Assembly (NCBI GenBank): GCA_963843375.1 | Contig: CAWJKT010000004.1 | Span: 160,001-224,000, forward strand | Direction of reading: 5' to 3' | DNA: 64,000 nt | DNA from: an uncultured Pseudomonadota bacterium | Lineage (GTDB): Bacteria > Oederibacteriota > Muellerivitia > Muellerivitales > Muellerivitaceae | Shown here: positions 10,735 through 53,050 of the stretch, piece after piece | Position numbering within the stretch: the stretch's first letter is position 1 | Layout: each line of letters opens with the position of its first letter | Program-made: the position numbers and the translations under genes | The notes under the pieces: model-generated | Told to the model about the DNA's origin: nothing | Database searches by the model: none | The model's input: the letters and a program-made list of their open reading frames with translations, nothing else

Positions 10735-10842
10735 AGGAGTTCTTTCTTTAAAAACCGTCGGCGGGAAGGCGCTTTTCCAAAACCCGCAGTCCGTCAGCAT
10801 AGTTAAAGCGTTTTTAAAAATCCTTTTGTTGGCCGAATAATC

Positions 10843-11196
10843 CTAACAGGCCTTAAACCATCCTTCCAAATTTTTTTCAATGAGGTTCAGACGTTTTACC
10901 CAACGGTCATGTAGTTCGGATGACAAAAGGTTCTTCTTTAGGCAAAGAGAGATCAAAGGAACGCACTCATGGGTGAGGGCGAGGGAATCCTCGAGGAGTT
11001 TTTGGGTGCGGGCCATATTGGAAGAATCTTGGGCGGCAGCAACTTTTTGGGATAATTCGTGGATCTGGCGTTTAAGACGGGATACGGCTTCATGCTTCAA
11101 GGCCCAGGGCAGGTGCCGGTAGGTTTTGTTGATTTCACTGGCTAGGTCACCGCAGAGAGCGGCTATGTCGACGTTCAAGAAGTCTGATGAAGGCAT
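10843..11196 (-). CDS. Four-helix bundle protein (Avd / 23S-rRNA-IVP-like)
   Basis: 117 aa, helical pattern; LP after helix 1, LISLCLKKNLLS and terminal IEKNLEGWFK resemble the Avd/four-helix-bundle consensus. Confidence 0.6.
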   Translation of the reverse strand: MPSSDFLNVDIAALCGDLASEINKTYRHLPWALKHEAVSRLKRQIHELSQKVAAAQDSSNMARTQKLLEDSLALTHECVPLISLCLKKNLLSSELHDRWVKRLNLIEKNLEGWFKAC

Positions 11197-11205
11197 GGAC
11201 TTATT

Positions 11206-13287: not shown

Positions 13288-13575
13288 CGCCTGTAAAAAA
13301 TAGAAGGTTTTTTCAATTTTTCAGCCCGAACAATTTTAAATATGATTGTTTTAAATCCGAAGTGGAAAACGCGATCAAAACGGAGGGGAATCTTCATTGT
13401 TTGTTCACCATTAAACTTAATTGTGGGTTAGGCGTCTCGATGGAAATTTATTTTAGACTTTATTGGGTTGGGTAACATATTTATTTTAGGAAACTTAACA
13501 GACTGAGAGCGGGTTTTTCCTAGGCTCTTTCCTTGAGTATTTTCAAACACAACTGCTCCGGGTTTCGTTTCTGTT

Positions 13576-20014: not shown

Positions 20015-20024
20015 CGAATCTATT

Positions 20025-21362: not shown

Positions 21363-21432
21363 AAAATTCCTCAAAATTGATCTCTTGATTATCCTTGGAG
21401 CAAAAAAGGCGGAATTAGGAATGACGCCTATT

Positions 21433-23571
21433 TTAAGGAGTTTTATCCACTCCGACATTTTTAAGTTTTATCTTTTGGTTCAATAAAACCAAGTTTTGGG
21501 CGGCAGGGGTTAAGTCCAGGGGAGAATCAATAGCTTTTTGATAAGCTTTTTTCGACTCCATCAATTTTCCCTTTTTCTCTAGCAGGAAGCCCTTATCGTT
21601 CCAAAGTTCAGGCAGGGAATAACCATGGGCCAAAGCTTGATTAATTGCGGATAGAACAGCGTCGTAATCACCCTCCACTTTTGAGTGAAAAATGACTTTT
21701 TCCCAAAAACAGGATTCGAGAAAAGGGTCTCCTTTTATTTCAGGGTGAATATTAAATAACAAATCCAGAATGGGTTTCGTAGTCTGTTCCGGATAATCAG
21801 TCATGATGGCGGTTGTAACCGCCTCGAGCTTTTGGTTTACGAGGATCCAATGTTTCAAGGTGGGTGCCGTTGACCCATTGAAAGGAATTACGCCCAACAT
21901 TTGGGCTTGGTTAGTCGTTGCGCCAATTTTCTCTAACCAAAACCAACGCCCTTGAGGAAATCGGGAGGCCAGGAATGGCTTGTAATTGGCGTTGATGACA
22001 ACCGCGATCCAGCGTACGTCCGAAAGTGAAAGAGCGGGGTTATGGGCGGCGTCAAAAGGGAAGGTTGCTGTCATCAGGGTGGTATCGGTCGGATTCGGCT
22101 GGAGGTCTAAGAGTAGCGCCCCGGTTCCTTCCTGTTCTCGGATCTGTTCCAGAATGTTGTATGCCTGGTCCAATTCCACCGATTTCATATTTTTCCAATA
22201 AGAATTAGGAACCCCCCAGAGGTGGTGATAAGGGCCCATGAGATGGTAAAGGTCAAAAAAAACAGAAGAGGCTAAAAGAAGACCCATGATCGGCGTCCGG
22301 TACTCCTTTTTCCAATCCGACGGCCAGGTTTTCAAAAGGTTTTGAGCTCCTATGGCGGAAACCAATATTAATAATGGAAAAATTTGAGTATTGCGGAATA
22401 TTTCAAACCCTTTGGATACCAGGCCTGGAAGACAAAAAAGTCCCAGTGACAAAAGGAGCCAAAGGTAAAAGCGGTTCCGATGGATTCGGAAGCACTCAAG
22501 GATTCCCCAAAAGAAAAAAGCATCCATAACAGGATTTAACATTCCTCCCCAAAGCGGACCATAACTTGCGGAAAGGGGGGCAATCCAAAATAAGGAGGCA
22601 AGATTTAACAACGCGTCTTTGAATGGGAGTTTGGAAACGTTTTGAAAGTGGAAAGTTCTTGCGCTTAAAAGATGAGAGCCGTAGTTTTTATTAATAGAAA
22701 TGTAAAGGAAAAAGGCGGAGACGAAAATTAAGGACGCAAAAAAAACCCAGAATTTTTTCTGGCTAGAACGGGAAACGAAAATGTATAAAACAGCTATTAC
22801 GACAGAAAATGCAACGACGGGCCAACTGATGGCAACAAAAAATCCAAGTCCGGTTATAAAGCCTAAAAAGAGACCGGGTTTAATTGTTTTATTGCTTGAA
22901 TTGGTTACGTAAAAACTTAGGGCCACGAGGGTTATAACTGTCCAAAAAAGAACCATGACCGGCCAAGTGCAAAACCGGGCTGAATAAAGAAAGGTGAAAT
23001 TGAATGATGCCATTGTCAATAAAAGAAAGGTGAAGGAGGCGGGAAATGTTTTTTTTGCCCCTACATAAATCACGAAAACCGTCACCACGGAGATTGTTGC
23101 TGGAAAAAGCCAAAGGGAAAAAAGCGAGGGTTCAATCCATTTATAAAATAAAGACAAGGCCCATACGGTTATAGGGGGGACTTGAACATAGCTGAAGAAA
23201 AAATTCCAATGCCATTTCCGGGCCAATTCCAAGGCATAAAAAGAGAAAAGGCCTTCGTCCGGCATGGGCCACGTAGAAAGTCGGGTCAGGTGCCAAAAGC
23301 GGACCAGGATCGCTCCGGCCAGAATTCCACAAGTCCAAAGATAATGGGGTTTAAATGAATCCTCGGGACCCACAGGGAGGTTCTCGTTTCTTTGAGATGA
23401 AAGGATGTAAAAGATCAAAAGAAGTCCGAATCCTAAAAGCCCAACCAAAACCTTTATAGCTGTGGAAAAAGAGGAATAGGAGAGAAAAATATTAATAAGA
23501 AGAAATATAAAAAAACATTTCCAGGAATGAAAATTAATCGGGATTTTTTCAAAAATATTATTTCTAATCAT
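21433..23571 (-). CDS. GT-C-fold membrane glycosyltransferase with TPR-like C-terminus, paralog 6 (between hpnD and hpnE)
   Basis: WPMPDEG, WGGMLNP, NANYKPFL, DPFLESCFWEK; start overlaps hpnD stop by 8 nt. Confidence 0.72.
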   Translation of the reverse strand: MIRNNIFEKIPINFHSWKCFFIFLLINIFLSYSSFSTAIKVLVGLLGFGLLLIFYILSSQRNENLPVGPEDSFKPHYLWTCGILAGAILVRFWHLTRLSTWPMPDEGLFSFYALELARKWHWNFFFSYVQVPPITVWALSLFYKWIEPSLFSLWLFPATISVVTVFVIYVGAKKTFPASFTFLLLTMASFNFTFLYSARFCTWPVMVLFWTVITLVALSFYVTNSSNKTIKPGLFLGFITGLGFFVAISWPVVAFSVVIAVLYIFVSRSSQKKFWVFFASLIFVSAFFLYISINKNYGSHLLSARTFHFQNVSKLPFKDALLNLASLFWIAPLSASYGPLWGGMLNPVMDAFFFWGILECFRIHRNRFYLWLLLSLGLFCLPGLVSKGFEIFRNTQIFPLLILVSAIGAQNLLKTWPSDWKKEYRTPIMGLLLASSVFFDLYHLMGPYHHLWGVPNSYWKNMKSVELDQAYNILEQIREQEGTGALLLDLQPNPTDTTLMTATFPFDAAHNPALSLSDVRWIAVVINANYKPFLASRFPQGRWFWLEKIGATTNQAQMLGVIPFNGSTAPTLKHWILVNQKLEAVTTAIMTDYPEQTTKPILDLLFNIHPEIKGDPFLESCFWEKVIFHSKVEGDYDAVLSAINQALAHGYSLPELWNDKGFLLEKKGKLMESKKAYQKAIDSPLDLTPAAQNLVLLNQKIKLKNVGVDKTP

Positions 23572-24445
23572 GAGACTTTATGTTTTTTTTAAAATCAGAC
23601 ACCAATTTCTTATCGGCCCATTTCCAAAAATGACATTGTCCAATAATGCCAATCACCGAAATTAATTTGTCCCATTTGGACAGTGTGATTCGGCCTTGCA
23701 GTATCCGGTAAGGATTGTTTTTAAGCTTTTGAAAGAGTTTCACGTAAACCGCGGCAATGGCTTCGGCGGTCGACAGTTCGGCCCTTTGGGACCGGGACAA
23801 GGATTGACGGGCTTTTTCAAGGAATCCCCAAGCCCGGTCCAGTTGGAACTCGACGAAGAGTTTCCAATGGGAATTATTTTCATCAATATTCTGTGGGTTC
23901 AAATGGAACCGCTTAAAATCTTCACTAGGAAAATAAATCCTTTTGATGGCTTTATCTTCCAGGAAGTCCCGGGCAACGTTCACGATTTGAAGGAAAACTC
24001 CCAAGTTTTCGGCGTATTCCCGGTGAGGCTTATCCTTGAAACCGAATATTTCCATGCTGGAAAGACCCGGTCCGCCCGCTACTTGAAGGGCGTAGTGGTG
24101 GAGTTCAGTGAATTTTTTGAAACGAACTGGCCGAAGATCCCTCTGCACCCCGTTCACAATGCGTTCCAAAGGCTCTCGTGTAAGGCCGAAACGTTGGACA
24201 ATTGTTTGAAATTGACAAAAAAAGTAATCCTTGGGTTTGCCACGGAAGGTATCCCGTAGGTTTTGCTTGAAACGGGCCAGCTTTCGACACTTTTCAACGA
24301 TGGTGCCGGGGCCGTCCGAAATCTCATCAGCCATCCAGCAAAAACGATAGAGAAGTTCCATGGCCTGTCGCTTCTCTTTATTCAAAAGAAGGAGCGGGTA
24401 ATAAAAACTGGTTTTATTTTCAAGGGACCCGATTTTAGGATTCAA
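23564..24445 (-). CDS. hpnD: Presqualene diphosphate synthase HpnD (squalene/phytoene synthase family)
   Basis: SFYY, YRFCWMADEISD, YALQVAG, LQIVNVARDFLED..RIYFP. Confidence 0.85.
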   Translation of the reverse strand: MNPKIGSLENKTSFYYPLLLLNKEKRQAMELLYRFCWMADEISDGPGTIVEKCRKLARFKQNLRDTFRGKPKDYFFCQFQTIVQRFGLTREPLERIVNGVQRDLRPVRFKKFTELHHYALQVAGGPGLSSMEIFGFKDKPHREYAENLGVFLQIVNVARDFLEDKAIKRIYFPSEDFKRFHLNPQNIDENNSHWKLFVEFQLDRAWGFLEKARQSLSRSQRAELSTAEAIAAVYVKLFQKLKNNPYRILQGRITLSKWDKLISVIGIIGQCHFWKWADKKLVSDFKKNIKSHD

Positions 24446-24460
24446 AAAATCCTCAATATG

Positions 24461-25337
24461 TTAATTTTGTGGAAGGACCCGACTGAAAAGGGCTTTTAAA
24501 ACCAGGGAAAACTTGTCCATAGCGTTCCACGAGGGCCGATTTTGAACCACATTGTAGTCCAAGGTTTTGATTTTATTGAGGATTCCGTAGCCCCCCAAGT
24601 AAGTGGCTTTCATTTCCCACCTGAATCGTCCCGATCACCGATTCCAAGAGGGGATAACCTTTTTGAAAATAGTTTTCCGTATATTCCACCGCGTTTTTCA
24701 CCAATTGCCGAACCTTAGGTGAATCCTTTAAAGACAAAAGTTCTTTTTCTGCCACACCTGTTTTTTTCATTTCCTTCCGGGGGTAATAAATCCTATTTCG
24801 CCTCAAATCAATGGAAGTGTCCTGCCAGAAGTTGATGAGTTGGAGACCACTACAGATAAAATCGGAATAATCATGAAGTTTTTTATCCCGGATACCTGAA
24901 ATGTAGAGAACCATACGGCCGATGGGATTGGCGCTGTGACGGCAATAATAAAGAAGGTCATTCCAGGAAGCGTAGCGCTTAATGGTTAAATCCATTCGAT
25001 AAGCCTTCAATAAATTTAGGGGAAGAAGAAGGGGAATATGAAAAGTTTTCAAAGTATTGGCAAAGGCCTGAAGAATCTTGGGCGCTTTTTTACCCTTCAC
25101 TGCGGCTTTCAATTCCTTTTCCCACCGGTTCAGTTCGGGCAGGCGTTTTCCCTCGAAAACTTCCTCGTCGGCAAAGTCATCGGCGGTGCGGGAAAAAGCG
25201 TAAAGGGCCGCTACATGGGGCCGAGATTCCTTGGGTAAAAGAAGGGATGCCACCGGAAAATTCTCATAGTGGGAAAAAACCAGCTTTTGACACTGTTGGT
25301 AAGCAGATTCGAGATCTTTGGAAAAGGGCGATTTCAT
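24461..25337 (-). CDS. hpnC: Squalene synthase HpnC; one extra base near 24630, C-terminus continues in another frame to a stop at 24461
   Basis: HYENFPVAS, YAFSRTADDFADE, YCRHSANPIGR, LQLINFWQD; shifted frame gives GRFRWEMKATYLGGYGILNKIKTLDYNVVQNRP. Confidence 0.9.
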
Positions 25338-25491: not shown

Positions 25492-26565
25492 ATGACCTTG
25501 AACAAGTCCTTTCTACTTGGAGCTTTTTCCGCCTTTTTTGGCCTTTTGTTCTTATCCGAAATATTCCTCCGCCTGACTGTTCCCACTGGCTTTTGGTACC
25601 GCCATTTCGACTTATCCGGTGACATGACCAGCTTGGCCGAGCTTCGGGACCGACTTTCCTTTGCGGCTCCATCGGATCACAGGGTATTCTTATTAGGCGA
25701 CAGCGTATTAGGCGGCAGCGCCCTGATGGAACACCGAATTCCTGAAGCTCGATCCAAAACCCTTTCCAGGTTATTAAAAGTTAGCCTTGGGGCCGCCGAT
25801 ACCAATGCGATTAGCTTAGGTTCGGATGGGCTTCTTTTACCCGACATTGAGGGTTTGACGAAGGAATTCTCCAACGCACTCCCGGATAAGATCCTACTTA
25901 TCTTGAATTTTCGAATGTTTTCCAAGGAATTCGGTGAAGGCGCCAAAGCCCTTTCGCGTAATTTCTTACTTCCGGATCTGCCTGGTGAAATCCAAAAAAG
26001 ATTAAGACCGGATAAATTACCCACAGCCGAAGCTCAATTGAGCGACCGGCTTTACGCGGGAATGTGTGACCATTGGTTTCTTTTCCGTGAAACCCAAATG
26101 CTCAAGACTCTATGGTATTACCCCAGCCAAAAGGATTTTCTTCAACGCCTGCTTGAGCAAGTGGTGGGAAAAAACGAAGACCAGGCGGACATGATTGAGG
26201 CGGCTTTGAAACAAAAGATCGCTTCCTACTATCAACCCTATCTTTGGGATCCCGATGCACTTCCCTTGAATTGCCTGAAAAGGATTCTGGATCAATGGAC
26301 GGAAAAACATATTCCCGTCGAGGTGATATTGACTCCCCAGAATAAAAAATTTTTAGGAAGCTACTTGGATAAACCCAGCTTCGAGAAGAACCGAAAAACA
26401 TTGGCGGTATTTATGAAGAATTACACCCAACAAGGTGTGGCCTATCTCGATTGGGCGGACCGGTTTGATAGCAAGGCTTTTTTGGATCACTGCCATTTGA
26501 CCCCTGAGGGGAACGAACAATACGCCAAAGATTTAATCCAAGTTTTGGGAAAAGGGACACAATGA
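25492..26565 (+). CDS. Membrane-anchored SGNH-fold protein (DltD/AlgJ/PatB-like acyltransferase)
   Basis: N-terminal TM helix, LLGDS, C-terminal DHCH (DxxH); first gene of MBOAT operon. Confidence 0.75.
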   Translation: MTLNKSFLLGAFSAFFGLLFLSEIFLRLTVPTGFWYRHFDLSGDMTSLAELRDRLSFAAPSDHRVFLLGDSVLGGSALMEHRIPEARSKTLSRLLKVSLGAADTNAISLGSDGLLLPDIEGLTKEFSNALPDKILLILNFRMFSKEFGEGAKALSRNFLLPDLPGEIQKRLRPDKLPTAEAQLSDRLYAGMCDHWFLFRETQMLKTLWYYPSQKDFLQRLLEQVVGKNEDQADMIEAALKQKIASYYQPYLWDPDALPLNCLKRILDQWTEKHIPVEVILTPQNKKFLGSYLDKPSFEKNRKTLAVFMKNYTQQGVAYLDWADRFDSKAFLDHCHLTPEGNEQYAKDLIQVLGKGTQ

Positions 26566-26684
26566 GGAATGTAGAATTCTGGAAGGGTTTCGGAATTGGT
26601 GTAGTTTTGTTCGCCATGTTCCTGGCGATTCTTCTTTTTTCAGGCGACCTATCAGCTTCCAAATTCATCTATGTGGATTTTTAA
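26562..26684 (+). CDS. 40-aa DltX-like single-TM micro-protein (MRNVEFWKGFGIGVVLFAMFLAILLFSGDLSASKFIYVDF)
   Basis: Translated by hand; ATGA overlap with the SGNH gene, TAA abuts the MBOAT GTG; hydrophobic helix plus C-terminal FIYxxF. Confidence 0.88.
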   Translation: MRNVEFWKGFGIGVVLFAMFLAILLFSGDLSASKFIYVDF

Positions 26685-27890
26685 GTGATCTTTAATACCA
26701 GTTGGTTCCTGCTCTTCTTCCTTGTTTTTTATTTTTTCCTATGGTTCATGCCCAACGCCAAAGTGCGGTTTCTATATCTCCTGATCTGCAGCGCTATTTT
26801 CCACTATCATTTTGCCGGCCCGGCAGGAGTAACGCCCATCATCATCATGGCGGTTATCACTTTTTTCTTCGCCCTTTGGATTTCCAAATGTTCCCCGGGA
26901 AGCCTCCGGAAGAAATGGGTTTTTACCGCTGCTCTTTTGGTACCTATCTTTGGGCTTCTCTTTTATAAATATCGCGCGCTATTGCTGGGGTCCATAGGTC
27001 CTCTCGTCGGTGGTTCCGTGGGCGGGTGGCTGACTGCCAATGCTATTCAACCGGCGATGCCGCTGGCGATCTCCTTCTTCACTTTCGAATTCGTTCATTA
27101 CCTTACGGATATCTATCATGACCACGGAGATCCAATAAGGAATCCATTCAAGTTCGGTATCTTCTGCATATTCTTCCCCTCCATCGTTTCAGGCCCTATT
27201 AAGAGGTTTCAACCTTTTTTGGCCCAAATGGAAAACGGTTTGGAGAGGCCGCCAGTGGAAAAGGCCGCCTTGGGTTTGGCTCAATTGCTCCTGGGTTTTT
27301 TTAAGAAACTTGTCATCGCCGACAACGCCACTATGCTCATCCATCTCTTGGAAAAGCGAACCGACCTTCATTTTGGTTCTGTCTGTCTCTTACTGACACT
27401 TCTTTCAATTCGAATCCTTTTTGACTTCAGCGGCTATAGCGATATTGCTATAGGCTTGGGCAAGATGATCGGGTTGGATTTACCTGCGAATTTTAATTTT
27501 CCTTATATTTCCCGCAATATCACCGAGTTTTGGCGCCGGTGGCACATGTCCCTCAGCAGTTGGATCAGGGATTACATTTATATTCCTATGGGCGGAAATC
27601 GATTCGGTGTTGTAAGAAAATTCTTCAACCTGATGGTCACTATGTTCGTGTGCGGGCTCTGGCATGGCGCTAGCTGGCACTTCGGCCTTTGGGGCATGTA
27701 CCATGGGGTAGGGTTGGCGGTTCACAACGTCTGGAGCAAATCGAACATGGGCCAGAAATGGGAAGCCCTCCCATTTAGCCGATGGGTGGATATTGGAATT
27801 ACGAATGTTTTCGTGGCTTATGGCTGGCTTTTGTTTTTTTATCCGATGGAACAAGTTACAAAGTTCACGGAACGTTTATTTCAATTTTGA
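26685..27890 (+). CDS. MBOAT family O-acyltransferase (DltB/AlgI/PatA-like)
   Basis: PLAISFFTF, SGPIKR, DFSGYSDIAIG, FWRRWHMSLSSWIRDYIY, catalytic GLWHGA. Confidence 0.93.
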   Translation: MIFNTSWFLLFFLVFYFFLWFMPNAKVRFLYLLICSAIFHYHFAGPAGVTPIIIMAVITFFFALWISKCSPGSLRKKWVFTAALLVPIFGLLFYKYRALLLGSIGPLVGGSVGGWLTANAIQPAMPLAISFFTFEFVHYLTDIYHDHGDPIRNPFKFGIFCIFFPSIVSGPIKRFQPFLAQMENGLERPPVEKAALGLAQLLLGFFKKLVIADNATMLIHLLEKRTDLHFGSVCLLLTLLSIRILFDFSGYSDIAIGLGKMIGLDLPANFNFPYISRNITEFWRRWHMSLSSWIRDYIYIPMGGNRFGVVRKFFNLMVTMFVCGLWHGASWHFGLWGMYHGVGLAVHNVWSKSNMGQKWEALPFSRWVDIGITNVFVAYGWLLFFYPMEQVTKFTERLFQF

Positions 27891-27904
27891 TCTCAGGAGA
27901 AGTG

Positions 27905-29980
27905 ATGCCCAAGGAATACCAGCGAAAGACACACGAGTGGATAGCATTTTGGATGTCTTTCTTCTTCTTTCCATCGTTGGTTTTTGCCCTTTCTCCCATG
28001 GATTATTACAACAGCCTTGTTTGCGGAGCGGAAGAGGCTGGGTTCCAAGATGGGGCTTTTTATCAGGCCCGATTCAACGGTCCATGTGGCTTGGCTTTTG
28101 ACGATAAGGGAGAGAGGCTTTTCGTAGCCGACAGGGATAATCACCGAATTCGAGTCATTTTCCTTAATGAGGACAACCGGGTGGAAACATTGACCGGAAC
28201 GGGCAAAGCGGGGTCAGTAGATGGAAGTTTAGACCAGGCTTCATTCGACTTGCCTTGGGCGCTGGCTTGGGTTCCAGGCGGACACTTGGTGGTTTACGAT
28301 GCTGGCAATAAACGGTTTCGGGAAATCGACTTAAGCGCTGGGAGCGTTTCCACGCTGGCTTGTGATTCTTCGGACTGTAAAACCACCGCAGCGCCTGCGT
28401 TCCAAGTATGGAACATTGTCTATTGTTCAAAGGACAACAGCCTTTATTTCACCGAACCCTTGGGTCAGGAGCTTCAAAAGATGGATTTGGGATCCCAATT
28501 GGTCTCCACCGTTTTTTCAAAAAATTCACAGATACCCCAACCCAAAGCCCTTTGTCTTGACGGGGACCATCTTTACGTCGCGGACAAGGATCTTCCGACG
28601 GTGTATGAAGTGGATATGCCGACGGCCACCGGAACTACCCTAGCCCCTGTTTCGCTGACGGAAGTGGGAAAGGGGCAGCTCATTCAAGAAATGACTTTTT
28701 CGGACGGACAATTGTACGCCTTACAATTTGGAAACCCGCCCTTGGTGAGATTAAACCCCTATGAACCTGTAAGTCTCGCCACATCCTGGGGCTTCACCCT
28801 GGACGAATCGGATTCGCAATACAAAGCTCTTTTGAGTTTCACTTTACTTGATCCGGTAGGATTTGCTTCTTGTCCCGCCTTTCCCCGGAAGCTGTTTATT
28901 TCCCATCCCAGAATTACGGATCATTCCCTTTTAAGCGTTAAGGATTACGAGTTCGATAAATATTGGGCCGGCCGTGACTTGGTTTCGGATGAGAGAGAGG
29001 GGGTTTTAACGGATTTTCATTATCCCGAGGCAAAGCCTCCCAACACTTTTCGTATTTTAGTGGTGGGGGATTCCCAAATTTTGTCCGGTGACCTCATGGG
29101 ACCGAGCGACGGGGCCGTGACGGGAGAAGGGGCCTCGCTTTTCCAATTCGGGGCCTCTCCACGGGATTTAACTTGGCCCAAGCAGTTGGAGTTTATGTTG
29201 AATGCCCAAGCCGCCTTGGCCCATGGGAACATCCATTACGAGGTACTCGTGTTGGGCCACCCTGGGAAGTCGGCCCAACTCTTCGGTTATTATGAAGCGC
29301 CACCGCTTGTGGAGAAATATGACATCGACTCTGTCTTGTTTTTTGCCACGCCCTACAACATTGATAATCAGGATTCCTATTCGAGTTATTTCTTGAAAAA
29401 AATGACCCAAGAAGGCGTGCCGGCCCAGGAGGTCGACCCGGAGTATCTTTTGACGTCCGCTTCCAAGCGGGTGCCCCCCGGCATTCCAGCCGATCTTTAT
29501 CAAAGAGCCTACGAAGCGGGATTCATCAAGAAGGTTTCGCCAACCCAGGATTATTTCGCTCCTTTTGCGGACTTGTTGGAATCCGACGACAGCCAAATCC
29601 ATGAGGACTTGGTTCAAATGGTGGGGCTGCCCCTCAAGCTCCTGTCGAATAAAGTCCAACTGCATAAAACCAGAGGAGGAAAAGAAACCTCTTTTCTTCT
29701 TTGTTATGCCCCCAGCGGCGATAATAGTATTAAAACTAAATCGGATTATCATGTTTTTTGGCGGGATGTGATTTCCCAAACCCAATTGCCTTTTCTGGAT
29801 CTGGACGATTCCTTCAGGGTTTTCAAATCCGCTTTTTACCCCACGAATGATGCCTGCTGCCATAGCCACTTTACCGCTTATGGTGATATGCTGGTTGCCT
29901 ATCTGTTGAATTATTATCTGGTCGCTGGAAAATTTATTCCTTTTGGGACAAACCAGGGCCTCGAAGGCTCGTCCAAGTAG
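27905..29980 (+). CDS. Secreted NHL-repeat beta-propeller fused to an SGNH-like domain
   Basis: ARFNGPCGLA..LFVADRDNHRIRVI repeats; TFRILVVGDS; C-terminal HSHFTAYG; SD AGGAG before start. Confidence 0.75.
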   Translation: MPKEYQRKTHEWIAFWMSFFFFPSLVFALSPMDYYNSLVCGAEEAGFQDGAFYQARFNGPCGLAFDDKGERLFVADRDNHRIRVIFLNEDNRVETLTGTGKAGSVDGSLDQASFDLPWALAWVPGGHLVVYDAGNKRFREIDLSAGSVSTLACDSSDCKTTAAPAFQVWNIVYCSKDNSLYFTEPLGQELQKMDLGSQLVSTVFSKNSQIPQPKALCLDGDHLYVADKDLPTVYEVDMPTATGTTLAPVSLTEVGKGQLIQEMTFSDGQLYALQFGNPPLVRLNPYEPVSLATSWGFTLDESDSQYKALLSFTLLDPVGFASCPAFPRKLFISHPRITDHSLLSVKDYEFDKYWAGRDLVSDEREGVLTDFHYPEAKPPNTFRILVVGDSQILSGDLMGPSDGAVTGEGASLFQFGASPRDLTWPKQLEFMLNAQAALAHGNIHYEVLVLGHPGKSAQLFGYYEAPPLVEKYDIDSVLFFATPYNIDNQDSYSSYFLKKMTQEGVPAQEVDPEYLLTSASKRVPPGIPADLYQRAYEAGFIKKVSPTQDYFAPFADLLESDDSQIHEDLVQMVGLPLKLLSNKVQLHKTRGGKETSFLLCYAPSGDNSIKTKSDYHVFWRDVISQTQLPFLDLDDSFRVFKSAFYPTNDACCHSHFTAYGDMLVAYLLNYYLVAGKFIPFGTNQGLEGSSK

Positions 29981-30006
29981 GGACTTTTAATTAAAGGAGA
30001 AATAAG

Positions 30007-30510
30007 ATGAAAGAATTTCTGTTCATTTTAATTTTTTTCGGGCTTGTGACTTTGATAGGAGCTCAAGAAACTCCGGTGCCCGCGATAACAACGCCCGCCA
30101 CCGTTCCAGTGACAGTCATCGAGAAGTGGAACACCTCCAATGTACCTTGGGACGATTGGTTCAAGAGCAACGCTATGGTCACGGATAAGACCGATTACGT
30201 CCATTTCTTTTGGAACGCGCAAGACTTCAAGGCCAATTTCGAGGTGAAGAATAAGAAAGTCCGCTTAGCTGAGGCTGCGCTGGAATTGGTGAAGCGTCTT
30301 TATCCCTCGGACGCCAGTGCGGACCAGGTAAAGGTGGATATTGTTTATGTATTAGAGAGGGATTCCTATGGCCAACCCAAGTGGGACAGCCTACAACAGG
30401 TGGCTCATTTTGAGTTCTTGAAATCAAAAGCGCTCAAACAGGCCAAGAAGAAGCAAGTTCTAACCGATACTGTTATGAAAAAGATTTTCGATAAATTTGA
30501 GTTTTATTGA
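30007..30510 (+). CDS. Secreted hypothetical protein, last gene of MBOAT operon
   Basis: SD AAGGAG, signal peptide, short P/T linker. Confidence 0.7.
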   Translation: MKEFLFILIFFGLVTLIGAQETPVPAITTPATVPVTVIEKWNTSNVPWDDWFKSNAMVTDKTDYVHFFWNAQDFKANFEVKNKKVRLAEAALELVKRLYPSDASADQVKVDIVYVLERDSYGQPKWDSLQQVAHFEFLKSKALKQAKKKQVLTDTVMKKIFDKFEFY

Positions 30511-30742: not shown

Positions 30743-31597
30743 ATGAAAAGAATTTTGAGTTTCGCTGTAACTTTTTTCATCTTGGCGGGAGTTTCCGCAA
30801 GTAATGCTCAAAATTTATCCACAACTCCATCTGCCAGTGGCCCCACTCCGTCCACGACACCAGGTTCAACCGTTAAGCACCACAAAAAGAAGAAGGCCTC
30901 CGTCCAAGCCACGGTTCAACCCACTGCCCAAATGACTGTATCGCCAACATCAAGTCCTTCGGTTACTCAAACCCTCCCTGTCAAACCGACCTCAACTCCG
31001 ACTGCGATGCCGACCCCAACAAACGTTCCTGAATCCTCTTCGATGGGAGCTATCGCCAATTCGAAAATTTATGACCGCATGGACCTGCCTGGGGACTTAC
31101 GTGGAGCTTTGTTCCGTGCCGTCAAGACATTGACCAGGGTTTCCGTGAAACATGGCCACACGGTTTTCTTGGACCTGGAAAAGGTTTCCGCGAACAAGAT
31201 CGATAAGGAAAGAAGGAACGCCTACGCGCGATTCGAGATTAATGAACTGGAATTAGGGGGAGCTCGCAACCCTTGGATTCTTCTGGCCGGAACTGTTTTC
31301 GAGCAAAGTGGGGATGATTGCAAAGTGGACGGTCCCATCGAAGTGGCAATTGATTTTAAAGATATCAAGATCAATTACGGCGGGAGCAAAATGGGGGAGA
31401 TCCAAAAAGGAAACGATATCGCCGCCCAAGTGTATAAGAAACTCATCAGCCATGACGGCTACCAATTGATATTGCAAGCCAATGACCAGGACAAGGATTC
31501 CAAGTATATGGACGATACAGCGGCCTATACCGTCAAGGCCAGGGATGGATACGTTATTATGGATTTCCCGAATTCCTCCCATGAAGCATCCCGATAA
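30743..31597 (+). CDS. Secreted Pro/Thr-rich hypothetical protein (cassette copy A1)
   Basis: Signal peptide, KHHKKKK, PT-rich linker; close paralog at 32780. Confidence 0.8.
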   Translation: MKRILSFAVTFFILAGVSASNAQNLSTTPSASGPTPSTTPGSTVKHHKKKKASVQATVQPTAQMTVSPTSSPSVTQTLPVKPTSTPTAMPTPTNVPESSSMGAIANSKIYDRMDLPGDLRGALFRAVKTLTRVSVKHGHTVFLDLEKVSANKIDKERRNAYARFEINELELGGARNPWILLAGTVFEQSGDDCKVDGPIEVAIDFKDIKINYGGSKMGEIQKGNDIAAQVYKKLISHDGYQLILQANDQDKDSKYMDDTAAYTVKARDGYVIMDFPNSSHEASR

Positions 31598-31615
31598 ACC
31601 CTGGAGGACTTAGTT

Positions 31616-32695
31616 ATGCGCGAAGTTAAAATGAAAGCATTGGGATGTTTTTTGTTGGTTCTCTTGGCCATGCCGGGCTTTGTCGGAGCCATGAGTTTAG
31701 CCAGCCAATTAAATAATCCCCCTGAACCCTTGAGTGTGGAGGCGGAGGGGATGGGAGAAGCGGTTGTTGCGGACGGAACTCTTTTCAACGCCACGGCTTT
31801 CAACCCGGCCTTACTCTCCAACGCTCCCTATTCCGGGGAATTTAGTTTGGGCTTTGACGCCTCCAGCGGCGTTACCGGGCTCAGCAATTACCTGTCAAGC
31901 GGGTCCACCGACCTTCCCCCCGATACCGTGAATATCGGGGCGGGCTTCAATCTCGCACTGAAGTTCGACGACCATTGGGGTTTCCAGGTTTACAACAATA
32001 GCCACGGATTTTTCCAACTCAAGCTTCCCGGTACGGTGGAAACAATCACCGGGCCAGACTATCTCGACACGGTGGCCCTGGCCACCTACAACTTCAAACC
32101 CCTGGAGGATGAAACTCCACTGACGGTCGGGGTCAATCTAAAGATTGTGGACCATCGCGTCGGGACCATTGACAGTTCTGAAACCCCAGGCAATTTCTCC
32201 AATTTCAACAGCGAGTTTCATCCTTCCACCTTGCGTTGGGGGTTGGATTTAGGTCTGCTTTATGAATTCCAACAGGAACATGCCGCCTTAGGTCTTTCGG
32301 CACTCGACCTTTTTCACTCCGCTGGGACGATCGATGACACCGTGGGAGATCCCCTTTACGGGGTCAATATGGATCCGGCCCCTGTAGTGGTCAAGTGTGG
32401 CGCGTCCTGGAACCCCATTGGTCCATTCGTCTTGAACGCCGATGTGGACGATCTTTTTTCCGATACCGCTTTTTATTCTCAAAACCCGGGTTTGGGGTCC
32501 CACGTGAAGTTGGGGGCCGCCCTTAACCTGTTTCTCATTCAATTGAAAGGCGGTCTATCCAATGGCAATGTGAGCTTGGGGTTTCGGATTCCATTCCTGG
32601 GTTTGGATTGCGCTTATGCGGTTGATAATTTGAACGCCGTGGATAATACGAATCAGGTTTATAGCTTCTTCTTTGATTTTAAGGTTGAAAAGTGA
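31616..32695 (+). CDS. TraF-like outer-membrane beta-barrel protein (cassette copy B1)
   Basis: Signal peptide, GMGEA..NPALL, GLDLGLLY, aromatic C-terminal strand. Confidence 0.6.
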   Translation: MREVKMKALGCFLLVLLAMPGFVGAMSLASQLNNPPEPLSVEAEGMGEAVVADGTLFNATAFNPALLSNAPYSGEFSLGFDASSGVTGLSNYLSSGSTDLPPDTVNIGAGFNLALKFDDHWGFQVYNNSHGFFQLKLPGTVETITGPDYLDTVALATYNFKPLEDETPLTVGVNLKIVDHRVGTIDSSETPGNFSNFNSEFHPSTLRWGLDLGLLYEFQQEHAALGLSALDLFHSAGTIDDTVGDPLYGVNMDPAPVVVKCGASWNPIGPFVLNADVDDLFSDTAFYSQNPGLGSHVKLGAALNLFLIQLKGGLSNGNVSLGFRIPFLGLDCAYAVDNLNAVDNTNQVYSFFFDFKVEK

Positions 32696-32779
32696 TTTAG
32701 CGGGGTTTGGTTGTGTAGCAATTTTTGCGATTTTTAATGCATTTGATGGATTTCGAAAAAAGTTAAGGAGTTAGTTTCC

Positions 32780-33637
32780 ATGAAAAAGAAAATTATATTT
32801 TGGGTAGCGTTGTTCATCTTGGCAGAAGTCTCCGTCGGAAGGGCGCAAAATTCATCCTCCACGCCCACCATCAGCGGTCCTACCCCTTCCACGACTCCCT
32901 CTTCGTCCGTCAAACACCACAAAAAGAAGAAAAAAGCCTCCGCAAAAGCCACGGTCCAGCCCACAGTCCAAATGACCGTTTCACCAACCGTGAGCCCCTC
33001 GGTGACGCCGATCATTGCCACCAAACCCACAGCTACGGCTACAGCGACGGCAACGCAGGCAGCTGTTTCCGAACAGTCTTCCATGGGAGCTATTTCCAGC
33101 TTCAAAATTTACGACCGGGTCAACATGCCGGGAGATTTCCGCAGAGCTGTCACCCATGCCGTCCAGACATTGAACCGGGCTTCCTTGAGGCATGGCCACA
33201 CGGTTTTCTTGGACTTGACAAAGGTTTCCTCGAACAAGATGGATCAGGAAAAAAAGAAGGCCTACGCGCGCTTCGAGGTTAACGAACTGGAATTCGGCGG
33301 GCCCCGCAATCCTTGGATCCTGCTGGCCGGAACCGTTTTCGAACAAAGCGGCGATGATTGCAAGGTAGACGGTCTTATAGAAGTGGCGGTTGATTTCAAG
33401 GACATCAAGATCGACTACCAGGGGTCCAAGCTAGGCGAAATTCAAAAGGGGACTGATATCGCTGAGCAGGTGTATGAGATTCTTAATAGCCATTCGGACT
33501 ATCAGTTGATATTACAGGCTAATGATCAGGATAAGGATTCCAAGTATATGGACCAAACGTCGGCTTACATAGCCAAGGCTAGGGATGGGTATGCGATTAT
33601 GGATTTCCTGGTTTCATCCCATGAATCATCCCGATAA
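32780..33637 (+). CDS. Secreted Pro/Thr-rich hypothetical protein (cassette copy A2)
   Basis: Shares GPTPSTTP, HGHTVFLDL, RNPWILLAGTVFEQSGDDCKVDG, LILQANDQDKDSKYMD with A1. Confidence 0.8.
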   Translation: MKKKIIFWVALFILAEVSVGRAQNSSSTPTISGPTPSTTPSSSVKHHKKKKKASAKATVQPTVQMTVSPTVSPSVTPIIATKPTATATATATQAAVSEQSSMGAISSFKIYDRVNMPGDFRRAVTHAVQTLNRASLRHGHTVFLDLTKVSSNKMDQEKKKAYARFEVNELEFGGPRNPWILLAGTVFEQSGDDCKVDGLIEVAVDFKDIKIDYQGSKLGEIQKGTDIAEQVYEILNSHSDYQLILQANDQDKDSKYMDQTSAYIAKARDGYAIMDFLVSSHESSR

Positions 33638-33660
33638 CCCATTTCCTGGAGGAGCCTGTT

Positions 33661-35189
33661 ATGCAAAGTATTAAAATGAGACTTTTAGGGTGTTTTCTTT
33701 TAGTCTTCCTGACTTTGCCGGGCCATGCCGGGGCCTTTGATTTAGGCAATTTGGGGACGCAATTTAATGTTCCGCCTGCCCAATTCAACGTGACGGCGGA
33801 AGGTATGGGGGAAGCGGGGGTGGCCGATGGAACTTTTTACAACGGTACCGTCATGAACCCCGCGCTATTAGCCAACGCGTCCCATTTTGTGGAAATAACC
33901 ATTCCAGGTTTCAGTATCTCCAACGATATTTTCTCAATGACGAACTACTTGACGAATTCCAACAACATCAATAACCTTCAAAACGCATTCCAAAATCTAG
34001 CGCCCTCGATGAAAGAAATCACCCAGGGTTTGCAACAGGTTTCCAGCGATCCGTCCGCCGTGACACAGATCAATCAAGGGCTTGCGGGCGTCCAAAACGC
34101 CATTTCCAACCTCCAGACTGCGGCGGCCACTCTAACGGATAAAAACATTCAATTGGGGGCCGGATTTAATATCGCCATGAAAATTGACGACCACTGGGGT
34201 TTCGAAATCTACAACAATACCCATGGAGTTCTTCAAATCACTCAGGAAGGTACGCTTCAGGCCCTGGAACAAATGGCGGCCCTGCCTACATTAAGTGGGT
34301 CCAGTCCCGCGTCTATTTATAGTGCCGCCAGTACATTTTTGGGGTCGGCCGTTTCGGTTCTCCAAGGACTTTTGCCCAGTCCCAAGCCGTCTCACTGCAA
34401 GCTGCGGTGACTGCCTTACAAGCCAATGAAACCACCCAAGGTGTCAGCATTTTTGCAAACACCGTATCCAACATTGTTTCGACTGTTAACCAGACGACCT
34501 TCCAAAAGGCGCTCCTGCAGAATATTGCCGAGGTAACGGGGTTGGTTTATACCGACACGGTGGCCATGGCCACCTATAGCTTCAACCCCCTGGAGGATGG
34601 GACACCTTTTACGGTTGGCGCCAATTTAAAGGTGGTCAATCGTCGTATCGGCTACATGAATAGTTATTGGCTGAGCCAGCAAAATCTCAATGATTTCTCC
34701 AACATTACCAACGGGTTGAAAAACGACATTGACCAGAGCACTTTCCGCTTTGGGATGGACCTGGGACTTCTTTACGAGTTCGAGGAACTCGGACTTTCAG
34801 TGGGGGCATCGGCCGAGGACCTTCTGCATACCTCGGCAACCATCACCACCCAGCCGGGGGACCCACTCTACGGCATCATCACCGACCCGGCCCCCACCGT
34901 GATAGCCCTTGGCGCTTCCTGGCATCCCCTCGACCCGATCATCTTGAATGCGGATCTGGACGACTTATTTTCGGCCACCTCCTATTACGAGGGCATGGAT
35001 ATCTTTTCCCACACGAAATTGGGGGCTGCTTTTAACTTACTGGGCTTCCTGCAATTGCGGGGTGGTGTTTCCAATAGTAATTTAAGCTTTGGCTTTGGCG
35101 TTCCATTTATGGGATTGAATTACGCCTATGCGGAGGACGATTTGACTCAAAGTTATAACCACTATCTCAGTTTTGGAGCGAACTTTTAA
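33661..35189 (+). CDS. TraF-like beta-barrel protein with helical insertions (copy B2); frameshift near 34380 splits it into two ORFs
   Basis: First ORF has GMGEA/NPALL/DDHWGF, second has DTVAMATY/GMDLGLLY as in the single B1 ORF; ends HYLSFGANF. Confidence 0.65.
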
Positions 35190-36329: not shown

Positions 36330-39300
36330 TTAATGAGAGGAGGGTTGAAAAGGGATTATTTTTTCTTGAATAAGCTTTTGGGCCAAAAGATATCCCTTGA
36401 AAAAATAACCGCCCGAATTTTGATGGAAAGTGCTCGCGAATTCCGCCACTGGAAAATAACTTTGCCTTAAGGCGGTAAAAGGCGCGGCCAAATCCAGGTA
36501 GGGAATACCCGCCATTCCCGCCACATCCCCCCAAAGCTTCCGAAATGGTTCCACTTGGACAAGGTTCCCATGGCTTCCGGCTGGGAAAAAAAACATTCCC
36601 AAAGCTACTGGCTGGCCCTGGCTCGTTTGCATGGAGGAAAGCTTTTTGCGCAAAAGGGCGATGGGTTTGCTGTAAAGAAAGACAATATCGGCTTGGTCCT
36701 TTCTATCGGCCAACACTCCGGGCATGTCCAAACCATCCAACTCATCCTTTCCTCCCGCGACAATTCGAAGATGCCTTCGGAAGATATCCCCCTCTCTGCC
36801 GGAAGGCAATTGTTCCTTAAAAGACTTGAGCAAAAATTCGGGGTCCTGTTTCCAAGCGGGAATGCCCTCGGAGGTGAGAGGCCGCTGGTAATAAGCCCTA
36901 AAGTTTTGGGAGGGAGCCGAACTCATTCCCATCAATACAAGGTCAATGTCATATTTTTTGACTACGTCCGGGTCTAAGTAATAGTTCCATAGAAATGGCG
37001 GATAATCGTCGCCGTTGCCAAAGGCATAATTAATTACCTCAAAGTGGGTCGGACTCCCCTCTAAAGACGCTTCGGTGTTCAAAAAGATCTGAAGTCGCTT
37101 GGCCAGGTTTTCCATGTTATTGTTCCCGAAATCATTTCGGAACACGTGAGAATCGCCGGTAATCATAATCCGAAAAGTGTGTTCCGGTTTATGGGGGGGG
37201 TATTGGTAATCCGGCACCCCATCGGGAAGGGGATGATAGGGGTCCGGGTTTGCCTTGAAATCGTCATCCGAGAGACAGAAAACCTGATTTAAGGTAGGGG
37301 AAGTCAGGAAAAGTTTTTGCTCCCACTTTCCCCCGGTTATCAAACCTACGGGTTCCCCTCCGTTATTTCCCCCCAAGAAAGCTGAAAAATCGAAAGGGAC
37401 GGGATTTAAAAGGGTTTCCCAAATGGACATGGCCCGGGTGGTTGGTTCCGTATCCACTCGAATCCAGGATACTGGCGATCCCGCAAGAGCGTAAAGACAA
37501 TCTCCCAATGCCGCCATTGCGCAAACAGAGGATCCATTCCAAAGGGGGGTTAGGGAAGTCTTTTTCTCTTCTGGGGAGCCAGATACCGTTACGGTTCGAA
37601 TTCCAGGAAGGGTCAAGTCCGACAAGCAAAGATTACCATGAAAAAGGGTCATGGCCGCAGGTTGTGGAGAGCGAGAGTCCTTTTCCAAAAGGACAGTTAG
37701 TTCAAGGGTTTTAAATGAAATCATGTCCAGGCGGCCTTGAGTAGGTTCGGACAAATAAAGGGCATCCGAGGAGGTGTCATAAACCATGTTGAAAACTTCC
37801 GATAAGCGGCCAGTTTCCACCGGTTGACCTTTTTGCTTTAAAGGAAGCGTGGATACACTGCCGGATTTGGAGTTAATTTCCCGTAGGAGACCCTTTTGGG
37901 CGTCATAAACGACCAAGCCCTGGGGAACGGCGGCCAAGAGGGTAGGCTGCTCGAAAGAAGCTTGGTTCAAGGGCCCATCCCTGTTCCCCGATTCATCGTT
38001 ACCCGACAAGGTTTCCACTTCGTTGGAATGTTCCAGGTGGATTACCCGTATCCGGTGATTGCCCGGATCGGCCACGTAAAGGTCCGACCCATCAGCGCTC
38101 AAAGCCAAGCCTGTGGGGGAGTGGAATAGGGCCGAGGCAAAATCCCCTTCCCGGAAACCGGCCGCACCCTCTCCCGCAACCAAGTCAGTGAACTGTCTTA
38201 AGGGTTCAAGGGTTTCAGGTGTTTCCGTAAAAGGCTTGAGGGCTCCCTCAGGGGTAAGATCCGCAATTAGTAGCCGGCGGGCCAAAAGTCCCCCCAACAA
38301 ATCGGCGCCTTTCACGTTGAGTTTAGGCTGGGGCCCATCTTCCCCGAGGGGAAAGAAAGAAGGCCGCAAAAGGGTCCAATCCCGGGTTAGGTCAAGAAAA
38401 GATATGTTTTTTTCCCTGCAAAACCCCGTCCAAAAAGCCCGATCCTCTTCTACGGAAGGGATGGCGACACCGGCTGTACCGGGCAAGAAGGCCACTTGGA
38501 AAGCTGAAGCGGGATGTCCTGTTTTTTGCCATTGCCCCACGGATTGCTCCACCCAATCCGGAGAGGGAAGGGAATGGCTCGAGGATTCCAAACAGAGGAC
38601 CAAGTCAATGTCATAGGTTTGGGCAATGGGAATCAATGCCCCGGAGCTGTCGAAAGCCATCACCTCGAAGGAGGCATTCCATCCCTTCAAGGCCGCCTCA
38701 GTGTTGAGCATCAGCTCCAGCCGTTGGGGAGCTGTGGCCAGCGAAGGAAGGGCATGAGACGGTTCGGAACCGCCTGGAAGTGCCCCTGAATCCAACAAAG
38801 GATCAGCCACGACCAGGATTCGGACGGTATCTTTGGGTTTTGCGGGGGGATGTCCATAGGGTCTAAAACCCATCCATTGGGTTGGGGCAGAGTATTTTTC
38901 GGCGAGGTCACGAAAAGAAACGATTTCGTTCCGTGATGGAATGGCCAAGAGAAATGACCATTGTTCACGCGGATCGGAAATGAAACAAACTGGAGGGTCG
39001 TCCTGGAAAGGAAACCAATATTCCGAGGGCGGATGTTGCCCTGATTTATCCCATTGAATTTTGGTATCCCAAACGAATGGAAAATCAACATTTCGGATGG
39101 GTTTGAGGCAAACGAAGGGAGGATCGGTTTTTTGGAAGGCATAAAGGTTCTTGCCAGAGGGGATTAAGCCGAGGATAGACTTGCCTTGGGTTATCTCAAT
39201 CAAATCCGCCGGAGTTTGGTTCTTAGTTGGTATCGTAACCTGGAAAACCGAGGGTAATTCCCGATCGGCCACCAGAAGACGTCCCTGCCAAAGACAAAGC

Positions 39301-39959
39301 GCCCGAGGTTGAGGCACCTGGGAAGAATGGTCCAAGAGTACCTGAATATCATGGGTACCCAAGTCCAACCGCCGCAAAACATTCTTCAATGATTGGGTGA
39401 AATAAAGGGATTGGGTGGAAGGATCAAAAACCACTTCATCCACTTGCGCCAGGGAAAGGCCATGGGTTTCCTTGTCACCGCTGCGTACCAGGGTGGATAC
39501 GGTTTTTTGGGAAAGGTCCAAGAGGCGGAAAGACTCATCCGCAATATCGTAAACCAATAGACGGTCAGGAGATATCTCAAGAATCCGGTAGGGTTTATTG
39601 AAAGAAGCTACCGTCAAAGGCCCATCCAGGTGTCCCGGTTCCTCGCATCCCGCCAGGGTGGAGACTTCGTTTTGTTTTGTAAAATCGATGGCGCGGATAC
39701 AGTGGTTGTCCTGATCGGCAACATAAAGGAAATGGTTGTCTGAACTTAAAGTTAATGAAGTTGGGGAATGAAATTGAGCGTCGGCGAAAAAACCATCCTT
39801 CCGCCCCGGGTCGCCCTGTCCGGCCACTAGGTCATGAAAAGAGTGTATAGGTCCCAGGGCCCAGGATAGGTGAGAAGGAAATAAAAATGAGCCGTAAAGA
39901 AAAATAATAGCGATCCTGAAAACCGGGATGGGGTCCATTTTTTCGGGGGCTTGTTCCAT
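36330..39959 (-). CDS. Tandem 2x(NHL propeller + SGNH-like) secreted protein
   Basis: Two DLVAG..G..DG/EG + YVAD..NH.IR modules; TVRILVVADP (module 1) and TFRIMITGDS (module 2). Confidence 0.75.
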   Translation of the reverse strand: MEQAPEKMDPIPVFRIAIIFLYGSFLFPSHLSWALGPIHSFHDLVAGQGDPGRKDGFFADAQFHSPTSLTLSSDNHFLYVADQDNHCIRAIDFTKQNEVSTLAGCEEPGHLDGPLTVASFNKPYRILEISPDRLLVYDIADESFRLLDLSQKTVSTLVRSGDKETHGLSLAQVDEVVFDPSTQSLYFTQSLKNVLRRLDLGTHDIQVLLDHSSQVPQPRALCLWQGRLLVADRELPSVFQVTIPTKNQTPADLIEITQGKSILGLIPSGKNLYAFQKTDPPFVCLKPIRNVDFPFVWDTKIQWDKSGQHPPSEYWFPFQDDPPVCFISDPREQWSFLLAIPSRNEIVSFRDLAEKYSAPTQWMGFRPYGHPPAKPKDTVRILVVADPLLDSGALPGGSEPSHALPSLATAPQRLELMLNTEAALKGWNASFEVMAFDSSGALIPIAQTYDIDLVLCLESSSHSLPSPDWVEQSVGQWQKTGHPASAFQVAFLPGTAGVAIPSVEEDRAFWTGFCREKNISFLDLTRDWTLLRPSFFPLGEDGPQPKLNVKGADLLGGLLARRLLIADLTPEGALKPFTETPETLEPLRQFTDLVAGEGAAGFREGDFASALFHSPTGLALSADGSDLYVADPGNHRIRVIHLEHSNEVETLSGNDESGNRDGPLNQASFEQPTLLAAVPQGLVVYDAQKGLLREINSKSGSVSTLPLKQKGQPVETGRLSEVFNMVYDTSSDALYLSEPTQGRLDMISFKTLELTVLLEKDSRSPQPAAMTLFHGNLCLSDLTLPGIRTVTVSGSPEEKKTSLTPLWNGSSVCAMAALGDCLYALAGSPVSWIRVDTEPTTRAMSIWETLLNPVPFDFSAFLGGNNGGEPVGLITGGKWEQKLFLTSPTLNQVFCLSDDDFKANPDPYHPLPDGVPDYQYPPHKPEHTFRIMITGDSHVFRNDFGNNNMENLAKRLQIFLNTEASLEGSPTHFEVINYAFGNGDDYPPFLWNYYLDPDVVKKYDIDLVLMGMSSAPSQNFRAYYQRPLTSEGIPAWKQDPEFLLKSFKEQLPSGREGDIFRRHLRIVAGGKDELDGLDMPGVLADRKDQADIVFLYSKPIALLRKKLSSMQTSQGQPVALGMFFFPAGSHGNLVQVEPFRKLWGDVAGMAGIPYLDLAAPFTALRQSYFPVAEFASTFHQNSGGYFFKGYLLAQKLIQEKIIPFQPSSH

Positions 39960-52921: not shown

Positions 52922-53050
52922 CGGTCGTCCTAACTTAAAAATGTTTTTTTAACCGTTTTAAGCTGATGATTTAGCCCGCACAGATCCAAAACTGATTTTC
53001 AGAATATATTAATGATTTTAAAAGAAAATAATTTCCTTAATTTACTAGTT

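Follow-up and report, generated by a model that had tools for sequence, protein, structure and literature searches.

How can an MBOAT acyltransferase that lacks a C-terminal tyrosine motif take part in an acyl relay? The question is raised by an operon of five genes in a stretch of 64,000 nucleotides (hereafter the window; contig CAWJKT010000004.1, positions 160,001 to 224,000, assembly GCA_963843375.1) from an uncultured bacterium of the GTDB lineage Oederibacteriota. The operon encodes, in order, a membrane-anchored SGNH protein, a single-span peptide of 40 residues, a short MBOAT, a secreted protein that joins an NHL beta-propeller to an SGNH-type domain (propeller-SGNH or NHL-SGNH), and a secreted protein of 167 residues. 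We propose, with a probability of about 0.58, that these proteins form a relay that acylates a cell-envelope glycan by way of the free tyrosine peptide, the MBOAT, the anchored SGNH protein and the propeller-SGNH protein. The FxYxxF motif was reportedly defined by Schultz et al. in 2023. A relay through acyl-tyrosine is established for DltX and PatA, according to the available part of PMC12148441.

A preliminary description of the window had claimed five closely spaced, co-oriented genes, among them a transmembrane peptide ending KFIYVDF. All five open reading frames were found in the same orientation and at the positions it gave (Table 1). The start of the peptide gene overlaps the stop of the SGNH gene through ATGA, and the peptide has one hydrophobic span at residues 9-27 and its motif tyrosine at position 37. 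An ending of the form [FY]xYxxF is found in only 7 of the 38,782 open reading frames of 25-90 codons in the host genome, the peptide included, which makes it more than a chance match. Across 46 distinct peptide DNAs the entropy by codon position is 0.72, 0.26 and 1.43, and the pooled ratio of nonsynonymous to synonymous substitution (dN/dS) of 0.06, from 227 non-independent pairs, points to purifying selection; the rows were chosen by their terminal motif, so the invariance of the motif in that set is built in. On comparative evidence the peptide is a real gene, and its translation is predicted, codon selection being indirect evidence for it. Read-through of the peptide into an in-frame MBOAT was ruled out by the gap of -1, 17 or 53 bases between them in relatives. 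A profile of the peptide matches that of five DltX peptides over its whole length (75%, E 2.5e-5, 38 columns). The peptide has no match to the Pfam DltX family, so its likeness to DltX lies in motif and profile and not in a family cut-off.

The micro-gene is conserved in relatives with the short MBOAT. Among 40 relatives searched, 17 have the short MBOAT clade, and the peptide is encoded directly upstream in all 17. Metagenomes baited with the SGNH protein, and not with the peptide, yielded 33 loci, of which 29 have the peptide and the other four end at the SGNH gene; in every metagenome locus with enough DNA (29/29) the peptide thus follows the anchored SGNH gene. It is also present in 8/8 further genomes. 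In five of these eight the order is propeller, MBOAT, small protein, SGNH, peptide (the small protein at locus L203 was missed by gene calling and recovered by genome search). The gene order is thus reshuffled yet the peptide stays behind the SGNH gene, which indicates that it tracks that gene and not the MBOAT. All five genes occur in an acidobacterial genome (L032), where the short-clade MBOAT is accompanied by its peptide. The split, DltX-type layout proposed in the preliminary description is supported. In one group of peptides (L141, L143, L144, L147 and L158) we noted an N-terminal extension of 23-28 residues with a conserved PL(S/A)(Y/C)xGEKRFF. A same-genus genome, G001 (L112, 9098-9439), has its propeller-SGNH gene shrunk to a C-terminal remnant and the other four genes intact.

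Where the MBOAT carries the tyrosine motif in cis, the peptide is missing. Among the matches listed, 80 GTDB loci sample other MBOATs and give no measure of the range of the short clade; 79 of them encode long enzymes that end in FxYxxF or a close variant (in one the motif sits across a frameshift), none with a peptide-like open reading frame alongside, and the remaining locus is the acidobacterial short MBOAT with its peptide. A set of 19 distant loci with an SGNH homologue comprises 10 from Myxococcota (251 genomes, 10 with a hit, nine of which supplied the 10 stretches), eight from Planctomycetota (eight stretches from six hit genomes, among 301) and one from the host phylum. Eleven of these encode a long cis-motif MBOAT and no peptide, and five encode a motif-less MBOAT together with a peptide (ending FIYIDF twice, VVYQGF, FVYAGF and FIYVAF), the frame of one of these five MBOATs continuing beyond the domain. 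At two others the stretch holds SGNH and peptide genes but lacks an MBOAT, and the last locus has neither peptide nor MBOAT. In the sequences compared, peptide and cis motif are mutually exclusive alternatives. One planctomycete genome (G832; L282-L284) encodes three SGNH-peptide cassettes (FLYVTF, FAYIAF and FIYVAF). In the stretches read, only one cassette has an MBOAT next to it; the two cassettes with no nearby MBOAT lie near Wzy_C or PMT_2 genes.

The window's MBOAT matches PF03062 and is the only MBOAT match in the host genome. As described earlier, it ends without the FxYxxF motif, and all closed orthologues do likewise; both active-site histidines are invariant in 109 homologues. JGI names many of the MBOAT's homologues AlgI. 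Against the DltB model TIGR04091 it scores 186 bits, compared with a cut-off of 375 and with 491-543 for true DltB rows. A 37-row tree computed under a mixture model, which is unrooted, in which long branches meet and from which the column filter removed the cis tail, separates the short clade (100/100), DltB (100/100, on a long branch) and 20 cis-motif enzymes (96/91). An 80-row tree gives the same three-way split, and in a 25-row version DltB adjoins the short clade with a support of 80, which makes it a possible sister group. All sampled cis-motif enzymes lie on one side of one branch, so that no more than one fusion or fission event might set the two designs apart. A topology uniting the short clade with the long MBOATs linked to fusion genes was rejected (approximately unbiased test, p-AU 0.017). 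We also noted three SGNH-MBOAT fusions (P0220, P0247 and P0263; 777-796 residues) that have an extended carrier-type helix and no terminal tyrosine motif. A complex prediction of the MBOAT with the peptide scored 0.02 (mark 0.32) and counts neither for nor against the docking of Tyr37 in the MBOAT channel, which is predicted.

The anchored SGNH protein has a predicted fold like that of DltD. Residues S71, G113, D332 and H335 are invariant in 106 homologues, and the AlphaFold2 model has a predicted local distance difference test score (pLDDT) of 95.7. The top 10 Foldseek rows are all DltD; alignment to DltD gives Z 17.5, a root-mean-square deviation of 5.2 and 285 aligned residues, and the next fold gives Z 15.8 and 172 aligned residues. 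The DltD model TIGR04092 returns 12 bits against a cut-off of 150, and the profile match is 18%. By analogy with Dlt, this protein is likely the first acceptor of the acyl group from the peptide.

The two remaining proteins belong to the system, as judged from co-occurrence and gene fusion. Among 99 genomes of the phylum, the SGNH protein is found in 26, the 167-residue protein in 28 and the propeller-SGNH protein in 31, and all three are together in 26/26 of the SGNH-bearing genomes; outside the window's family, the same 6 of 68 genomes hold all three. Seven proteins of 1,094-1,211 residues yield a profile that aligns with the three families in the order SGNH (E 1e-30), propeller-SGNH (E 3e-22, 540 columns) and 167-residue protein (82%, E 1e-5, 91 columns). 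For the last, the fusion link rests on profile-profile alignment and one direct match (E 2.4e-4); a word search for longer fused forms of the 167-residue protein found none at E<=1, and its hidden Markov model reaches P0244 and P0262 only at noise level. Fusion proteins of 1,080-1,210 residues occur in Myxococcota and Planctomycetota genomes, and in Myxococcota a cis-motif MBOAT adjoins four of the five fusion genes read. The 167-residue protein, which matches nothing in Pfam or NCBIfam and only hypothetical clusters in the ESM Atlas (0.82), is a core component and by analogy likely an adaptor.

The propeller-fused second SGNH protein of the preliminary description is present. In the model (pLDDT 85, predicted template modelling score 0.87) an alpha/beta domain comes after an NHL propeller, the propeller matches NHL domains at Z 26-30 (the fold lists cover the propeller only), and the C-terminal part resembles GDSL clusters with a score of 0.95. 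Its start is most likely 27905 (691 residues, AGGAG upstream) and not 27782 as in the open reading frame track. The protein belongs to a family that is mobile and expanded and whose members are found with cis-motif MBOATs as well. Five genes of the family occur in the host genome, and genomes with the family have from 1 to at least 12 matches. The catalytic Ser is kept in 30/32 modules and His in 31/32; in the tandem paralogue (Table 1) the first module has lost both and the second keeps both. The propeller-SGNH protein would, by analogy, likely be a terminal transferase, or else an esterase. In relatives (L270-L275 and L207) a second acylation system comprises a 531-residue cis-motif MBOAT, a 338-residue SGNH-like protein, FkbH and a MaoC-SDR fusion; it is often flanked by NHL-SGNH and 167-residue paralogues, and an FkbH-type gene is present in most copies, which suggests a glycerate-derived acyl group. 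The presence of NHL-SGNH beside this MBOAT as well implies that the module can be combined with different relays.

For the acyl donor, the informative segment is the one on which DltC docks in DltB (Met302, Val305, Ile306 and Met309; available part of PMC11035591). In an alignment with DltB 8JEM, the window's MBOAT has, at sequence level, a four-residue gap and YIPMGG at the M302-M309 segment. YxPLGG or a close variant is present in 19/19 rows of the clade and in most cis-motif rows. It is absent from 10/10 DltB rows, all of which have the extended DltC-docking helix, and also from the FkbH-linked family member and an MBOAT with FkbH upstream. Since the MBOAT has no counterpart of DltB's carrier-docking helix, acyl coenzyme A (acyl-CoA) is the likeliest reading of the donor from these alignments. 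No carrier or ligase gene was seen in the system loci read, and no DltA over the cut-off was found in the host genome, whose assembly is 80% complete. The preliminary description's statement that the window has no DltA or DltC holds, and in the genome the best DltA score, from a protein on contig C28, is 268-272 bits against a cut-off of 560, and the host's two carrier proteins are unlinked to the operon. The genome search it had called for returned no ligase of DltA grade, and did return an unlinked adenylation/carrier pair on C28 and a fatty-acid-synthase acyl carrier protein. The C28 region (19207-22513) encodes a stand-alone amino-acid adenylation domain, a divergent carrier protein and a SagB-type dehydrogenase, and resembles a small peptide-synthesis cluster. 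Of five near-complete genomes that carry the system, four have no amino-acid adenylation domain over the cut-off (G001 has one), and FkbH was absent from 4/4 tested genomes with the system, with G013 as positive control; three of these genomes (G018, G026 and G055; 99-100% complete) have neither. No FkbH was found in the host's own genome, in a search that gave no positive control signal. The sucCD genes lie beside the cluster in 2/18 loci, too few to favour succinyl-CoA.

We hypothesize that the MBOAT would take an acyl group from acyl-CoA in the cytoplasm, probably acetyl-CoA, and load it on Tyr37 of the peptide, from which it would reach Ser71 in the DltD-like anchored protein. The 167-residue protein may act as an adaptor through which the group moves on to secreted propeller-SGNH enzymes, and these would place it on the glycan; one relay might serve several propeller-SGNH paralogues of the genome. 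AlgJ, AlgF and AlgX are thought to act comparably for alginate. The direct basis for this scheme is the genes themselves, their co-inheritance, selection on the peptide, the fact that peptide and cis motif replace each other, the conservation of catalytic residues and the fusions. The folds are predicted; the individual reactions, the donor and acceptor, and the sequence in which the two SGNH proteins act are drawn from analogy with Dlt and Pat. The target is most likely a surface glycan. Genes for GT2, GT4, Wzx, sugar-nucleotide and GT-C proteins surround the cluster in two other families and in the acidobacterial genome.

Several observations weigh against a glycan-acylating relay of this kind. 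The usual neighbours in the window's own family are hpnCDE, GT-C/TPR arrays and nadE and not a glycan locus, and with about 20 GT-C hits in the genome, having such genes nearby says little. The NHL-SGNH proteins have no conserved triad Asp in a DxxH motif, and the residues before the His vary; they occur in five genomes that have no SGNH gene, are absent from several operon copies and also stand beside a different, FkbH-linked MBOAT. Two long MBOATs (L239 and L240) have no YxPLGG, so the helix rule is a heuristic, and a fatty-acid-synthase acyl carrier protein is present in the host genome. The relatives used for the counts are related genomes and not independent samples.

In an alternative arrangement, the MBOAT, the peptide and the DltD-like protein would by themselves make up the whole transferase, as they do in Dlt. 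The propeller-SGNH proteins would then be esterases with an editing role, comparable to Ape1 of Pat loci or DltE of lactobacilli, that remove or tune acyl groups. DltD alone is the terminal transferase in Dlt, and Ape1, which has a binding module, lies within the PatAB cluster (available part of PMC12148441); the DltX tail binds both DltD and the esterase DltE (available part of PMC13653941). The variable copy number of the secreted NHL-SGNH proteins and their place beside another MBOAT type fit such editing. However, a single chain that unites both SGNH domains and the 167-residue domain speaks more for a hand-over than for a transferase coupled to an enzyme that opposes it, and beyond the family exactly the same genomes hold all three proteins; we consider an editing role unlikely. 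The same split relay could instead be fed by a carrier protein (the fatty-acid-synthase one or the C28 pair), making it Dlt-like with another acyl or aminoacyl group. The genome does have two carriers and, beside one of them, a stand-alone adenylation domain, G001 also has such a domain, the SGNH protein is closest to DltD, and DltB lies next to the clade in the reduced tree; yet the C28 protein scores far below the DltA cut-off beside its SagB-type dehydrogenase, most near-complete genomes with the system have no such adenylation domain, and YIPMGG replaces the docking helix, all of which makes a carrier-fed relay rather improbable. The faintest prospect, in our estimate, is a target other than a glycan, such as a lipid, a hopanoid derivative or secreted proteins. 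The hpnC and hpnD genes are divergent from and next to the operon in 9/18 loci, and MBOATs acylate lipids and proteins in other systems. Against this, hpnCD was not seen at loci outside the family, where the neighbours are mostly glycan genes, and the characterised MBOAT-SGNH pairs listed in the available part of PMC12148441 all modify envelope polymers.

Table 1. Genes of the operon and its propeller-SGNH paralogues (positions are those of the window)
Feature	Position	Strand	Residues and motifs
DltD-like SGNH, membrane-anchored, 357 residues	25492..26565	+	Ser71, Asp332, His335; GDS at 69-71, DHCH at 332-335
Single-span membrane peptide, 40 residues	26562..26684	+	Ends KFIYVDF (FIYVDF), Tyr37; predicted DltX-type acyl shuttle
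Short MBOAT acyltransferase, 401 residues	26685..27890	+	His287, His327 (GLWHG); ends LFQF; PF03062
Secreted NHL beta-propeller (residues ~33-351) fused to SGNH-type domain	27905..29980	+	Ser390, His655
Secreted 167-residue protein, no listed family	30007..30510	+	Conserved RDxYGxPxWD
Paralogue, two tandem NHL-SGNH modules	36330..39959	-	31-32% identity to operon copy
Stand-alone NHL-SGNH paralogue, 681 residues	42161..44206	-	GDSH and YDHF; 34% identity over 698 columns

The host is confirmed from its gene content as a diderm, as the preliminary description had supposed, with LpxC and an Omp85/BamA gene. Promoter and terminator scans gave no signal above chance level. Divergent from the operon, hpnC, hpnD and an hpnE-like gene for squalene synthesis are interleaved with a GT-C/TPR gene (20025-25337, minus strand). 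Arrays of membrane GT-C (PMT_2-like) glycosyltransferases of about 700 residues occupy 8704-23571 (minus), 50825-55096 (minus) and 62823-63653 (plus), with six in one, two in another and a TMEM260-like gene; several have C-terminal TPRs. Downstream of the operon (30743-35189, plus) is a two-gene unit present twice, which encodes a TraF_2-like outer-membrane protein and a secreted protein rich in Thr, Ser and Pro that matches no listed family. The second of the TraF-like genes is split into two open reading frames (33661-34410 and 34407-35189); G001 has one of 518 residues. Elsewhere in the assembly, the open reading frames of contig C10 at 23000-52000 look high in GC and foreign to the genome, possibly as assembly contamination.

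The chemistry of such relays is known in outline, and the hosts are known here from genome assemblies only. A 2025 paper describes MBOAT/SGNH pathways other than Dlt as having no DltX-like microprotein (available part of PMC12148441). The family described here, together with separate short-MBOAT lineages of Myxococcota, Planctomycetota and the host phylum, contradicts that statement at the gene level. Genes of the dlt type are known from the Gram-negatives Dickeya and Pectobacterium, and dltX is often missed in annotation (available part of PMC5541007), so that what is new here is a detached shuttle with no carrier protein and not the diderm host. Our literature searches found no paper on a non-Dlt shuttle peptide or an NHL-SGNH partner, although Schultz et al. 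2023 and its supplements lay outside them and may list such peptides; the propeller-SGNH family, the 167-residue protein and the three-domain fusion were likewise not found in the papers searched. Unannotated open reading frames of 35-65 codons probably complete many loci recorded as "truncated AlgI". The system is also a natural setting in which to ask whether acyl-CoA can feed a free shuttle and what relation the fused design bears to the split one. More tentatively, donor type and shuttle placement may vary independently, this operon combining acyl-CoA with a free tyrosine peptide in a pairing not yet described, and the relay may be a hub that feeds many propeller-SGNH spokes. Up to a dozen secreted propeller-SGNH enzymes could then be supplied via a small adaptor, many different envelope glycans could be acylated, and the free peptide would be widespread outside Dlt.

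In comparison with known systems, the features general to MBOAT-SGNH polymer acylation are all present, namely the catalytic His of the MBOAT, the Ser and His of the SGNH protein, and a C-terminal FxYxxF tyrosine. With Dlt the operon shares a short MBOAT, a separate single-span peptide ending FxYxxF and an anchored SGNH protein whose closest solved fold is DltD. It differs in having no DltA or DltC, an MBOAT that scores half the DltB cut-off, forms a separate branch and has no DltC-docking helix, an SGNH protein far under the DltD cut-off, a diderm host of the lipopolysaccharide type and two extra secreted components. The alginate (AlgI/AlgJ/AlgF/AlgX) and cellulose (WssH/I/F/G) systems, with components named as in PMC12148441, resemble it in one MBOAT, an anchored SGNH protein, a second SGNH protein with an appended domain, a small accessory protein and a likely acyl-CoA donor; here, unlike there, the tyrosine motif is on a separate peptide and the appended domain is an NHL propeller. 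No match to the AlgJ, ALGX or AlgF families (Pfam and NCBIfam) was found for the five proteins or for 40 proteins of the window, the fold of the 167-residue protein not having been modelled, so that a remote likeness to AlgF is possible, and no alginate or cellulose synthase was found among the 40. With PatA/PatB/Ape1 it has in common an MBOAT, an anchored SGNH protein and a second SGNH protein in a diderm, and the model chemistry from acetyl-CoA through acyl-Tyr to acyl-Ser. PatA, however, has its motif in cis, the anchored SGNH protein shares only the core with PatB (Z 15.6, 175 aligned residues, versus 285 to DltD), and the peptide, the propeller and the 167-residue protein have no Pat counterpart. 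The layout is thus, as had been suggested, unlike the published Dlt, Alg and Pat arrangements: by these analogies, the system works like DltX-DltB-DltD with an Alg-like accessory set, and it falls outside the membership of both Dlt and Alg/Wss/Pat.

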